Below are positions 17,290-22,255 of a stretch of DNA of 35,791 nt, piece after piece. Made by a program: the position numbers and the translations under genes. The notes under the pieces are model-generated. The model ran no database searches. It saw nothing but the letters and a program-made list of their open reading frames with translations, and had not been told where the DNA came from. The number at the start of each line of letters is the position of its first letter. Position 1 is the stretch's first letter. The stretch comes from a virus (Duplodnaviria; Heunggongvirae; Uroviricota; Caudoviricetes), in IMG/VR virus record IMGVR_UViG_2534682162_000012. One strand, given 5' to 3'.

Positions 17290-17640
17290 TCACTTTAGCC
17301 GTTCACGGGCCGTCTTCGCCTTATGACACGGCCAGCACAGGCTCTGCAGATTGCAGTCTGCATCAGTGCCGCCATGCGCTTTAGGGATGATGTGGTCAAC
17401 GGTTTTCGCCTCACGCACCACACCGACACGCAGGCACAACTGACACAGGCCTTTGTCACGCTTGAGCACACGTTCACGGATAACATCCCATTTCGAACCA
17501 TAACCGCGCTGGTGTCGGGACTGGCCTGGCTTGTATTGCTTCCAGCCTTCGCTTTTGTGGCTTTCGCAGTAGCCTGACGGGTCAGTAGTGGTATGGCGGC
17601 AGCCGCGAACACGGCAGGCTTTTGGGGTTCGTTGTGGCAT
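17290..17640 (-). CDS. HNH endonuclease (packaging-associated)
   Basis: C-terminal CxxC...DHIIPKAHGG...N...CWPCH motif; start moved to the internal ATG at 17640 (MPQRTPKACRVRGC...); the N-terminal extension to 17829 is hydrophobic junk in AT-rich DNA. Confidence 0.8.
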   Translation of the reverse strand: MPQRTPKACRVRGCRHTTTDPSGYCESHKSEGWKQYKPGQSRHQRGYGSKWDVIRERVLKRDKGLCQLCLRVGVVREAKTVDHIIPKAHGGTDADCNLQSLCWPCHKAKTARERLK

Positions 17641-17761
17641 TAAAAAACTCGATTTGATGATGTGCATAGGATTCACAAAAAGCTTGCCCCAGCTACCGTT
17701 AAAAATCACAAACTTCCTATCATGCACCACGCCAATAACGGCAATAATTAGGAGCTGTAAA

Positions 17762-17971
17762 ATGAATAATGCAAATAACAAACTTTCAACCTTACCAACA
17801 CAAGAAGATCTGGAATATTTGATTTGCATTGCAGGAGGAGTGTTCGAGGATCTAAGGAATCCTTTTATTTACAAAAATCCAGAGAATATAAGGCGATTGT
17901 TAAACCGAAAAGGGGTTTCTGAAATAGTTCGCCTCTCTTACAGATTCAACAATACACCATCTTGTTACTAA
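17762..17971 (+). CDS. Hypothetical small protein (69 aa), accessory
   Basis: ATG with AGGAG RBS 8 nt upstream; AT-rich by eye; opposite strand to the flanking phage genes. Confidence 0.4.
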   Translation: MNNANNKLSTLPTQEDLEYLICIAGGVFEDLRNPFIYKNPENIRRLLNRKGVSEIVRLSYRFNNTPSCY

Positions 17972-18143
17972 CCAGTGGCAGGCACTTACTAAGTGCCTGC
18001 CTTAACCTGCTATTGCTACCTCTCGGCTACTTCAGCCTTTTCTTTTTACTATACGATTATCATTAACATTTTGATTTATTTTAGTTTATGTGCTTAAGCT
18101 TTGTGTGATAGCTATTACTTTTGTTTATAGAGAGGTATTTCCA

Positions 18144-18485
18144 GTGTCTGACGAAGTAGAATCATTACTCAATACAATGCTTAATTGTGACGCATTTTAT
18201 CATGAAGATGGTAAAGTTAGTGGAATCGCTAAGTTAGCTGTAACCAAAGGATTTGATAGTCTTTCTGCACCGCAAAAGAGGGTATTGCAACCTTTCCTTT
18301 CTCACCCATGTGGTGGTGTTAGAAATCCAGGCGGGCACCATAACGGTTGCTCTAAGGTTATCTCTGGCTATGAGCTAGAAGAAGCTTATAACTTACAAGG
18401 TTACTATGGAGATCTCTTATGTCAAAACTGCCGAGAAGAAAGCGACGGTTATGAAATAGAAAGAGAGAGATTCATGCAGGACTAA
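18144..18485 (+). CDS. Hypothetical Cys/His-rich small protein (113 aa), accessory
   Basis: GTG start with AGAGAGG RBS; contains HPCGG...HHNGC...CQNC, suggesting metal binding; AT-rich by eye. Confidence 0.45.
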   Translation: MSDEVESLLNTMLNCDAFYHEDGKVSGIAKLAVTKGFDSLSAPQKRVLQPFLSHPCGGVRNPGGHHNGCSKVISGYELEEAYNLQGYYGDLLCQNCREESDGYEIERERFMQD

Positions 18486-18661
18486 TCATTAACAGGCACC
18501 CAAAGTGCCTGTTTATAGCCGACTCTTCGAGCTGAAGGACGCCGTTCTCTTCTGATTCAGAATAAGCGACCAGTAGTAGTATACCCAGTAGCGTTTCTTT
18601 CCATCTTCAGCTTCAAATGCAGGGATTTAGTGAAAAGCACCTTTCTTATGATAAAAACTCG

Positions 18662-19659: not shown

Positions 19660-19986
19660 TTACTCCTTAGAGCCACCAAACTTATTACCGATTACTCTCA
19701 TTGCAGCCCCACGAATAGCATCGACCCCGATCAGCCCAACGCCGCCACCAATGGCAACAGAAAGAGATTTAGGCCATCCGACATACTCAAGAGCGGATGC
19801 AAAAGTCAGCGTCAGAGCACCACAGAGCAAAATCTCGAGCGTTTTTCGTTTCCAGCCACCACCACCGCCAAAATAGGCAATGCGCAAGCCAGCCATAACG
19901 ATCGACATAATCACTGCGCCCAGCGGTGTGTCTCCACGCCACCAGCTCTGGAACAACTCCAGCCAGGTATTTGGGTTATGAGGCAT
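19660..19986 (-). CDS. Holin (lambda S-like class I, three TM segments)
   Basis: 108-aa ORF with three hydrophobic segments and charged C-terminus, immediately upstream of the endolysin. Confidence 0.7.
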   Translation of the reverse strand: MPHNPNTWLELFQSWWRGDTPLGAVIMSIVMAGLRIAYFGGGGGWKRKTLEILLCGALTLTFASALEYVGWPKSLSVAIGGGVGLIGVDAIRGAAMRVIGNKFGGSKE

Positions 19987-20138
19987 TTGTAGTTATCTCT
20001 CACCTCGCTGATACAGCAGGTGCAAATTGAGGGAACATCATGTACAGCAAATTAGAAGCGGAAACGTCAAAGAAGCCGAACCAATGGATAACTGCGGAAT
20101 AGACCAGGACCAACGAATCCCCAGCCCCAGAAACGACA

Positions 20139-20160
20139 AAACCCGCTCGACGGCGGGTTT
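20139..20160 (-). terminator. Intrinsic terminator upstream of lysis genes (tR'-like)
   Basis: Perfect 8-bp stem AAACCCGC/GCGGGTTT with 6-nt loop, followed on the minus strand by TTTTGTCGTTT. Confidence 0.5.
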
Positions 20161-20205
20161 AAGCTGTGTGGCGAAGTAACCACTCTTAACACGATACAAT
20201 AATTT

Positions 20206-20234
20206 TTGCGTACGCGTTAGCGTTTTTGTAAGAT
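20206..20234 (+). promoter_or_regulatory. Candidate sigma70 promoter for the accessory cassette
   Basis: TTGCGT - 17 nt - TAAGAT located 38 nt upstream of the ATG at 20272. Confidence 0.3.
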
Positions 20235-20271
20235 TAACAAATAAATCGAAAAATCATAATCGGATGATTTC

Positions 20272-21294
20272 ATGGCAAAATTAAATGCTAGCGAAAGACT
20301 CGTTACTCATCATAGTCTGACCATTGACACAAAGTTTAGAACCAAGGCAACACAAGAGGTAAAAGCCCAGTGTATATGTCCTGTTCCGGAAATGTACATG
20401 CTTGCCCCATTGATTGTTAAACAAAAGGGACTCGTTCATTCATATGATTCTGGGAATATTGTAGTTACTCTCCAAGATGTACAACTTTATCCTTTACTTC
20501 CAGATAACTCACCCACGCATATTGTCCTTCTTATTAATAGTGTTGATAAAAATGGAAGTACTACCGTTGTAAAAAATACAAATACTAATGAACGCGTTGA
20601 AATCCAACCAAAATATGAACAAGGTGAAGGCTATGAAGTTTCTACCTATGTTGTCATATCATTAAATGGAAATAAAAGAACCTATGATATGATTTGTACA
20701 TCTACCCCAGGTGTATCTACGGCCCGGTTAAATAGTTTTTTAGACAAAATTCTCTTTGAAGTGGCGAAAGACAATGAAGACTTATTTACCGCAAAACATC
20801 CAACTAACGTTATTTCTGCAACATCAAAAAAAGAAGTAAAAATACGATACAAACCAATATTTGAATTTACAGGAATGTTAGACAAGGAGCTTTTTAATAA
20901 AATAAGCCAAAAAGGATTATCAGATGTCATATTAGTCAAGGATCAATTCGGAACAATTAATGCTCCTGATGTTAATTCACCTTACATTCCGACTGAAAGT
21001 ACATTAAAATTACTTCCAAATCATGGTGACAATGTTATTGGATGGATTAAAAATGTAGCATCTCATTTCAATAAAAAAATGAATGGTGGTTATGATAAAT
21101 TAAAGGTTAAATTCCAAGATCCTGAAACAAATAAACCAAGGCAGGTTGATTTCAAAACCTCAAACATCAATCTTAATAATTTAGAAAAAACATTTATTAA
21201 GAAAAGCATTATCGATAACTTTAATTCGCGCCTGAAGGATTCATATGTTAAAATTGAACTAGAGTTTGTTGTGAAAATGATAGATTTGATGTGA
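20272..21294 (+). CDS. Hypothetical soluble protein (340 aa), accessory cassette gene 1
   Basis: Long ORF in AT-rich DNA on the strand opposite to flanking Q and holin; RBS-like GGATGA upstream; no recognisable catalytic motif. Confidence 0.7.
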   Translation: MAKLNASERLVTHHSLTIDTKFRTKATQEVKAQCICPVPEMYMLAPLIVKQKGLVHSYDSGNIVVTLQDVQLYPLLPDNSPTHIVLLINSVDKNGSTTVVKNTNTNERVEIQPKYEQGEGYEVSTYVVISLNGNKRTYDMICTSTPGVSTARLNSFLDKILFEVAKDNEDLFTAKHPTNVISATSKKEVKIRYKPIFEFTGMLDKELFNKISQKGLSDVILVKDQFGTINAPDVNSPYIPTESTLKLLPNHGDNVIGWIKNVASHFNKKMNGGYDKLKVKFQDPETNKPRQVDFKTSNINLNNLEKTFIKKSIIDNFNSRLKDSYVKIELEFVVKMIDLM

Positions 21295-21301
21295 GGTTAT
21301 T

Positions 21302-21886
21302 ATGCCAATACTTTCAGTTTTCTCTCATCTAGGCAAGCCGTTTGGATATCTTTTTATTAAAGGTATTAGCGGCAAAGCTGCATATGATTGGGTAGCACCA
21401 ATTCTACTTACTTCTATCACAGCAGTACTTTTCATTCTATTAAAAATCCCTGTCAAAGATTTATTTGATGACAATGGTTTCATTAAATCAATCGTTTCAT
21501 TTATCTCTAACCTACCAGGGTTTTATATTGCCGCTCTGGCCGCCATAGCAACTTTCAATAGAGCTGAGATTGATTTACCATTGATTAGCAATGAAAGAAA
21601 TGCCTCTATTGAAATAAAAGTAACAAAAGAAAATGGAAAAGTAGTAAATTCAGAGGAGGTTCTGACCAGACGCTTATTTCTTTGCATGCTATTCTCTTTT
21701 TTAACAGCATTAAGCATTGTTATAATAATACTTAATGCTATATTTTCACCATTAATCAATGTCTATCAAAACAGTATTGTTTTAATGGTTTATACTGTTG
21801 TATTTACTTTCCTCGTTTGGCAACTCTTAGTATCAACTTTCTTTGGATTATATTATCTCGGAAACAGAATTCATATGAATTATTAA
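21302..21886 (+). CDS. Integral membrane protein with four predicted TM helices (194 aa), accessory cassette gene 2
   Basis: Starts 8 nt after gene 1 stop; four hydrophobic segments of about 20 residues each. Confidence 0.7.
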   Translation: MPILSVFSHLGKPFGYLFIKGISGKAAYDWVAPILLTSITAVLFILLKIPVKDLFDDNGFIKSIVSFISNLPGFYIAALAAIATFNRAEIDLPLISNERNASIEIKVTKENGKVVNSEEVLTRRLFLCMLFSFLTALSIVIIILNAIFSPLINVYQNSIVLMVYTVVFTFLVWQLLVSTFFGLYYLGNRIHMNY

Positions 21887-21903
21887 GCCCTACAGGGGCT
21901 TAA
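21883..21903. terminator. Hairpin at the convergent junction of the cassette and Q
   Basis: 8-bp stem TTAAGCCC/GGGCTTAA with 5-nt loop overlapping both stop codons; flanks are A/T-rich but without clean T-runs. Confidence 0.35.
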
Positions 21904-22255
21904 TAATCAACAAAATACCTTCAATCACTCCTATTGCTGCTTGAAGTTGTTTTCTGATTGACCCGTCAGAGCATTTCCGTTTCTTTGCTATTGAACGGAG
22001 TGAAATACCGATAACAAAGTGAGCAATGATCAGTTCATATTCTTCTGGCTTATATTTCCGCAATCGCGCAACACAGCTGTCAATCATGATTCCTTCATCA
22101 TCATCGCATTGTTGGCGTGTTTTCTTTCCATGAGGTAGTAAACCTTTAAACCCTGCAGCAACAGGCTGCCAGTCCACACCACTGTTATCTGCTGCAGCCC
22201 ATGCTCCCCAGCGGTCCAATACTTCATACATATCACGCATCAACCTTCTCCACAA
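21890..22255 (-). CDS. Late-gene antiterminator Q (Phage_antitermQ-type)
   Basis: 121-aa protein with the VLDRWGAWA...AGFKGL motif I recall from Q-family antiterminators of 933W-type phages; positioned upstream of lysis genes. Confidence 0.65.
   Translation of the reverse strand: MWRRLMRDMYEVLDRWGAWAAADNSGVDWQPVAAGFKGLLPHGKKTRQQCDDDEGIMIDSCVARLRKYKPEEYELIIAHFVIGISLRSIAKKRKCSDGSIRKQLQAAIGVIEGILLIIKPL

Follow-up and report, generated by a model that had tools for sequence, protein, structure and literature searches.

RexABpp, the PP_5643/PP_5644 gene pair of Pseudomonas putida prophage P1, protects against specific phages; both genes are needed for this protection, and deleting either one sensitises the cells (Rosendahl et al., Sci Rep 2026, PMC12894663). 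RexApp binds DNA, and its overproduction causes growth arrest (not clear death) and membrane permeabilisation, without phage and in a RexBpp-dependent manner; suppressor mutations in rexBpp are W25stop, F35L, L55P, an insertion at T103, S145N, G153stop and Y181H (PMC12894663). The pair is located near the repressor region of P1, downstream of a cI-like repressor (PMC12894663). Here we analyze a two-gene cassette, genes A and B, in a 35,791-nucleotide stretch of DNA from a virus of the Caudoviricetes (IMG/VR record IMGVR_UViG_2534682162_000012; hereafter the window). The cassette DNA is 99.3% identical to Shigella phage SfII, in which the A/B pair is SfII_50 and SfII_49, both annotated "hypothetical protein". 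From sequence comparisons we concluded that the RexABpp/PDC-M53 family includes the SfII cassette as a divergent member, and we consider it probable that the cassette is a prophage-carried Rex-type two-component abortive-infection or exclusion system of the same family as RexABpp.

Searches of Pfam and NCBIfam returned nothing above threshold for A or B, and in PHROGs both proteins fall in families of unknown function. Comparison with PADLOC (PADLOC-DB v2.0.0, 2023), a check that the first-pass annotation of this DNA had proposed, gave full-length matches for both proteins. For A, the PDC-M53A model PDLC04696 aligned to residues 7-340 through its positions 4-318 of 320 (1.6e-32), and the four remaining PDC-M53A models scored 1e-13 to 1e-15; for B, the PDC-M53B model PDLC04699 aligned to residues 6-193 through its positions 2-187 of 188 (1.8e-54). 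PADLOC lists its PDC-x entries as unpublished candidates (PMC11811056), PDC-M53 being a purely computational one, and the name "PDC-M53" was found in no paper of the searchable library used for our literature search. A similarity of B to the Pfam family Fijivirus_P9-2 (E 2e-4, below the gathering score, in 6 of 33 members) was dismissed as hydrophobic-segment similarity, and the A profile found no match among PDB sequences with HMMER. On these profile matches, PADLOC would label the cassette PDC-M53, an anti-phage type of module that is genuine but was already on record. The first-pass annotation had proposed an undescribed defence or exclusion system; the defence interpretation survives as a Rex-like reading, but the novelty does not, because both proteins match PDC-M53 and the Pseudomonas member RexABpp has already been validated.

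Both components belong to sizeable families. For A, a word-indexed search gave 30 clusters, all from Enterobacterales, and an exhaustive profile search gave 270 representatives at 50% identity, nearly all of 310-345 amino acids. The B family (682 clusters) is broader and better conserved, and reaches Vibrio, Shewanella, Aeromonas, Halomonas and Chromobacterium. Common to 32 diverse B homologues are the near-invariant motifs LPGFYIAALAAIATF, TRR.FL..F.FLTA.S and WQ....F.GLYYLG.R.H, the cores of which can also be written LPGFYIAALAA, RR..L..F..L.A.S and GLYYLG. Scanning one genome per species with B-family patterns, we obtained 65 loci that span Gamma-, Beta- and Alphaproteobacteria and a few other groups. 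An A-family open reading frame (ORF) lay directly upstream of B on the same strand in 60 of these species loci; the remaining five comprised two with A remnants or contig-edge fragments, two too truncated to judge and one (L052) with no detectable A. B was closer than A to the corresponding window protein in all 44 comparable loci (median identity 37% versus 23%), and such faster evolution of A is what a diversifying sensor (A) paired with a constrained effector (B) would be expected to show.

The link to RexABpp was drawn through the termini encoded by the published primers (Suppl. Table 2 of that study), which give PP_5643 as MHRTATFV... to ...RLMV and PP_5644 as MLIGQLANP... to ...LYYLGYKLQE, each followed by a stop. 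A locus of Pseudomonas sp. 286 (L030), retrieved through B-family motifs only, encodes an A protein running from MHRTATFVDIK to ALMV and a B protein running from MLISQLTKP to GLYYLGYKLQE. Five of the seven RexBpp mutation residues match this B protein in register, and at the DNA level the RexABpp primers fall on the expected gene ends in several loci of Pseudomonas. In PADLOC, L030 A is PDC-M53A (1.5e-149) and L030 B is PDC-M53B (4.8e-71). Compared with a profile of the window's enterobacterial subfamily only, L030 A scored 3.4e-12 in hmmsearch and 87% over 286 columns in hhalign. The B proteins of the window and of L030 share 38% identity (E 3.8e-31). The suppressor residue Y181 of RexBpp corresponds to Y185 of window B, the second tyrosine in the invariant GLYYLG motif. 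The sizes of RexApp (~330 amino acids) and RexBpp (at least 181) also fit PDC-M53 and not lambda Rex (279 and 144). Together, the primer-encoded termini, sizes and mutation positions indicate that RexABpp and the window cassette share one sequence family. The two differ in setting, as RexABpp has an immunity-repressor neighbourhood in Pseudomonas, whereas the window cassette lies between Q and the late promoter and lysis genes in Shigella and E. coli hosts.

Relationship to lambda Rex was not detectable by sequence. Neither A nor any of 45 family members matched Pfam RexA (PF15969) at E<=10, the B family did not match Pfam RexB (PF15968) at the same threshold, and the PADLOC RexA and RexB models matched neither A nor B; as controls, lambda RexA matched the PADLOC RexA model at 9e-110 and lambda RexB matched the PADLOC RexB model. 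With hhalign, the A family (198 aligned sequences) gave P 0.04 and a probability of 1.3% against an enlarged RexA alignment and 1.1-1.3% over the RexA alignments used, and the B family against a 16-sequence RexB alignment gave 0.7%. The best local B/RexB alignment, LPGFYIAALAAIATF against YAGTMIAILIAALTF, was not significant (P 0.08). The P. putida authors reported an HHpred match of 98% to RexA for PP_5643 (PMC12894663), which was not reproduced with the profiles used here; as our hhalign profiles had no secondary-structure terms and the RexA alignment was shallow, the published result may still be right. A is 60 residues longer than RexA, B is 50 residues longer than RexB and has an additional beta-hairpin loop, and lambda rexAB lies beside cI in the immunity region and is transcribed with it, whereas the window cassette lies antisense between Q and the late region. 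The likeness to lambda Rex that can be supported is one of predicted fold and architecture ("works like") and not of family membership ("is a"), in agreement with the first-pass annotation, which had pointed to a parallel in architecture while claiming no sequence similarity.

The actinobacteriophage Rex-like systems Sbash gp30/31, CarolAnn gp44/43 and Butters gp30/31 (PMC11077077, PMC12894663) are alike only in concept, being highly divergent pairs of a soluble and a membrane protein by which temperate phages exclude heterotypic phages. In Butters, the same sources give the roles as reversed, with the soluble protein as effector, so that architecture alone does not fix mechanism. RdgC, the recombination-associated DNA-binding protein, works alone as a housekeeping or phage modulator of recombination; it has no membrane partner and no sequence similarity to A. 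For Kiwa (four-transmembrane KwaA plus KwaB with DUF4868), neither the KwaB domain nor the KwaA-then-KwaB order was found in the cassette.

We used AlphaFold2 (AF2) models to examine each of the two proteins at the level of predicted structure. The model of A (predicted local distance difference test score, pLDDT, 78.8; predicted template modelling score, pTM, 0.72) is built of a beta-rich N-terminal domain (~9-172), then a beta/alpha domain (~192-314) and finally a helix at the C-terminus. In a Foldseek search of viral models, it matched phage RdgC proteins (E 2e-3) and three uncharacterised phage proteins (E 1e-8 to 1e-10). The published description of RexA is of a globular domain split by an inserted dimerisation domain (PMC11077077), and the domain order of A is co-linear with that layout. 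The model predicts a RexA/RdgC-like fold for A. The model of B (pLDDT 88.2, pTM 0.84) consists of an N-terminal helix followed by four long helices (25-46, 60-84 with a kink at LPGF, 123-154 and 158-189), with a beta-hairpin in the loop between the second and third and basic residues at its flanks. This predicts an inner-membrane protein with four transmembrane (TM) helices, the topology assigned to B in the first-pass annotation.

The layout of the locus (Table 1) is as the first-pass annotation had described it: two tightly linked genes on the plus strand, AT-rich, placed antisense between Q and the holin gene, with a hairpin at the 3' end. The genes are separated by 7 nucleotides (nt), and the TGA stop of A sits within the GAGG ribosome-binding site of B. 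GC content is 0.29-0.33 over positions 20600-21950 compared with 0.50-0.59 in the flanking DNA. All flanking genes, namely Q and a DUF968/HNH protein on the right and holin S, lysozyme and Rz on the left, are on the minus strand, so the cassette is antisense to the phage late operon. The convergent stop codons of B and Q lie 3 nt apart, both within the 3' hairpin, which is kept in the Salmonella carrier and partly in the Enterobacter carriers. This hairpin is a candidate bidirectional terminator that would insulate the cassette from Q.

Table 1. Positions of the cassette, its flanks and the cargo slot (window coordinates unless a locus is named).
Feature	Coordinates	Strand	Description and basis
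Gene A	20272..21294	+	340-amino-acid soluble protein, 38.4 kDa, pI 8.9; PDC-M53A family; predicted RexA/RdgC-like fold (ORF list, PADLOC, AF2)
Gene B	21302..21886	+	194-amino-acid predicted inner-membrane protein; PDC-M53B family (ORF, PADLOC, AF2)
Antiterminator Q	21890..22255	-	PF06530, 8.7e-45; annotated Q in SfII; right boundary of the cargo slot
Holin S	19660..19986	-	PF05106, 6.6e-25; SfII annotation; first late gene left of the slot
3' hairpin	21876..21909		Perfect 12-bp stem; -16.8 kcal/mol, z = -4.79; candidate bidirectional terminator
Conserved junction block	20161..20234		5' of the cargo; plus strand TTGCGT (20206-20211), 17-nt spacer, TAAGAT (20229-20234)
Hairpin plus T-run	20139..20160	-	Intrinsic-terminator-like (tR'-like), from terminator scan; downstream of the block on the phage late strand
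Conserved block and cargo slot in several loci	window 20138-20234; L105 2501-4166; L106 2501-4166; L003 2046-3603; L002 3634-4560

A second AT-rich stretch (~17600-18500, GC 0.36-0.42) lies downstream of the Rz genes and holds a plus-strand ORF for a 131-amino-acid Cys/His-rich protein (18090-18485), opposite the lysis genes and with no Pfam or PADLOC match, which may be another moron.

Among 5,426 complete E. coli genomes, the cassette is present in nine, every time beside Q, and a pair 81-84% identical to it occupies the same slot of Salmonella prophages with a different holin and lysozyme. In Chromobacterium, the pair lies in a P4-satellite-like island with integrase, AlpA and DUF927 genes. 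Other family neighbourhoods contain phage repressors, lambda P, ArdC, TniQ and IS66, and defence genes near family members include type IIG restriction-modification (R-M), SspH, MADS, SoFic and DrmMII. As judged from these gene contexts, the distribution of the family is usual for a mobile defence system. The Chromobacterium loci also encode, directly 3' of A and B on the same strand, a 507-amino-acid Ion_trans_2 (potassium-channel-type) protein and a 267-amino-acid protein (L103 10629-13027; L104 4231-6629), which may form an extended or adjacent membrane-acting module. Salmonella prophages with the cassette further encode, beyond the repressor region, a 357-amino-acid protein with a RelA_SpoT domain (L098 19342-20415; L099 13947-15020), which may represent a second defence or toxin gene, of the alarmone type (toxSAS-like).

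The 5' end of the cassette abuts a block of ~65-93 nt (within 20138-20234) that is conserved at 94-98% in 358 of the 5,426 E. coli genomes and in Shiga toxin (Stx) phages, most of these genomes lacking the cassette. Three ACGC repeats with 6-nt spacing occur in the block (minus strand ACGCTA ACGCGT ACGCAA). At the place of the hairpin and T-run that follow the block on the late strand, the Salmonella carrier has a hairpin and T-run of different sequence. Because the block and this minus-strand terminator fit the canonical layout of Q, PR', pause and terminator (bioRxiv 10.1101/651190), the block probably carries the phage late promoter or Q-utilisation site on the minus strand. Possibly it also carries a divergent cargo promoter, back-to-back with the pR'/Q-binding region. 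The first-pass annotation had singled out TTGCGT-N17-TAAGAT as promoter-like. This element is present at a conserved position. Five carriers holding three unrelated cargos can be aligned through CCACTCTTAACAC...TTTTTGCGTACGCGTTA, up to a -10-like hexamer TAnnnT (TAAGAT, TATATT, TAAACT or TAGTAT) placed 17 nt after TTGCGT; the homology stops exactly there, and each cargo then has its own leader. However, the element matches the consensus at only 7 of 12 positions, and a promoter scan did not report it and supported no junction promoter, its hit count being no better than that of shuffled sequences. In phage phi80, expression of the Tai system drops when Q drives late transcription (PMC11364771), a precedent for coupling of cargo expression to Q-driven late transcription.

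Q and the lysis genes had been described as normally adjacent, yet in this Q lineage they are often apart and the slot is commonly filled by other cargo. We found a pair of a 343-amino-acid soluble and a 179-amino-acid multi-TM protein in 13-14 of the 5,426 E. coli genomes, including an O157:H7 Stx2 prophage, and a 286-amino-acid protein with a 182-amino-acid multi-TM protein in 219 (4%). Neither pair matched PADLOC, Pfam, the A, B, RexA or RexB profiles, or the other pair. All slot cargos are antisense to the late genes and share the architecture of a soluble and a small membrane protein. Of the 358 genomes with the block, about 116 have no cargo of these three types, so more types probably exist. 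We raise, as a tentative and rather doubtful proposal, that the slot is a dedicated cargo-exchange site at which one shared ~65-nt promoter-bearing block drives interchangeable, unrelated modules of a ~300-amino-acid sensor and a ~180-amino-acid multi-TM effector, PDC-M53 being one of at least three.

Considering RexABpp and the lambda Rex paradigm, we infer the following mechanism for the cassette. We propose that A is the sensor and DNA-binding component and B the membrane-damaging effector. A would be cytoplasmic and probably dimeric, and upon infection activated A would switch on B, an oligomeric inner-membrane protein. B would then permeabilise or depolarise the membrane and halt growth, and the superinfecting phage could not complete its cycle, aborting the infection. 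A promoter of its own probably drives the pair in the lysogen, on the strand opposite to the late operon and shielded from it. Speculatively, the cassette promoter may overlap the late promoter region, which could shut the module off on induction.

Several observations weigh against assigning this Rex-type abortive-infection function to the cassette. The SfII copy is known here from its sequence, predicted folds and genomic contexts, and its relationship to RexABpp has the indirect basis described above. Window A is less than 25% identical to the RexApp-like subfamily, a similarity invisible to BLASTP and detectable by profiles only, so neither trigger nor target range can be transferred from RexABpp. 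For RexABpp itself, two-hybrid analysis detected no A-B interaction and membrane damage was seen in a subpopulation only (PMC12894663), so that the activation step is putative even in that system. At the sequence level, no homology to lambda RexA or RexB was detected. The Foldseek comparison that the first-pass annotation had suggested, informative for A, gave no significant match for B among viral models and hence no structural relative there. In Pinirhizobacter soli (L052 9926-10537), a full-length B has no detectable A within the 1.3 kb that precede it, which may reflect either replacement of the sensor or a B that works by itself. Finally, the same annotation had named a non-mobile context as grounds for rejecting a defence role: carriers lie in prophages, islands and defence-rich neighbourhoods, but some, in Shewanella, are beside ordinary chromosomal genes.

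The position of the cassette between Q and the lysis genes, abutting a late-promoter-like block, would also be expected of a regulator of the prophage life cycle, in which A biases the lysogeny/lysis switch by DNA binding and B modulates lysis timing or protects phage or antitoxin proteins from proteolysis. Lambda RexB reportedly protects proteins from proteolysis. Moreover, lambda RexA acts on the bistable switch independently of RexB, and its DNA binding is dispensable for exclusion (PMC11077077). We nevertheless regard this explanation as unlikely, given that the pair is antisense to the late operon and insulated by hairpins, that carriers differ in their holins and lysozymes, and that the family also occurs outside lysis regions (at the P. 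putida P1 repressor, in the satellite-like island and in non-phage R-M and defence neighbourhoods). The sensitisation to phages on deletion of either P. putida gene (PMC12894663) is a further point against it. A different possibility is envelope superinfection exclusion without harm to the cell, with B blocking DNA entry in the manner of Sie or Imm while A has an accessory or regulatory part and infection is not aborted. In its favour, the inner-membrane protein B is small and highly conserved, and many prophage morons of its size are injection blockers. The outcome for RexABpp was likewise growth arrest and not clear death (PMC12894663). Injection blockers are usually single genes, however, and B is strictly inherited along with a cytoplasmic protein whose fold is of the DNA-binding type; in addition, RexApp overproduction makes B toxic and the membrane leaky without phage (PMC12894663), which points to a triggered effector and not a passive block and makes simple entry exclusion improbable.

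Under a third alternative, the cassette would be a moron with no role in defence. It could encode a membrane transporter or stress factor together with its cytoplasmic partner, or it could simply stabilise the prophage as an addiction (toxin-antitoxin-like) module. The lack of catalytic or known functional domains in Pfam and NCBIfam is compatible with this, as is the finding that mis-regulated B can be toxic, as in addiction modules (PMC12894663); P. putida P1 deletions also promoted prophage loss, though not specifically at the RexABpp locus (PMC12894663). This option is very unlikely in our assessment: PADLOC had flagged the family as a candidate for defence (PDC-M53), one member has a direct anti-phage phenotype (PMC12894663), and its neighbourhoods are rich in defence systems and mobile elements.

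A Rex-type abortive-infection system would give a probable function to the "hypothetical" SfII_49 and SfII_50 of the serotype-converting Shigella phage SfII and to their relatives in E. coli and Salmonella prophages. It joins three separate descriptions, PADLOC PDC-M53, the validated RexABpp and, at the level of fold only, lambda Rex. As the family occurs in Alpha-, Beta- and Gammaproteobacteria, RexABpp is a widespread system and not a Pseudomonas curiosity. Such prophage modules can limit phage host range, which is relevant to phage therapy and to the typing of Shigella and Shiga toxin-producing E. coli (STEC). The slot hotspot, with its two uncharacterised pairs of the same architecture, is a more novel lead than the cassette itself and points to where further exclusion systems might be sought, among them one in a Stx2 prophage. 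If an overlap of the cargo promoter with pR'/Q is real, it could silence a suicide module when its own prophage turns lytic. Should all of the slot pairs prove to be abortive-infection systems of an extremely divergent Rex-like kind, the Rex known so far would be a small visible part of a large superfamily that evolves quickly.

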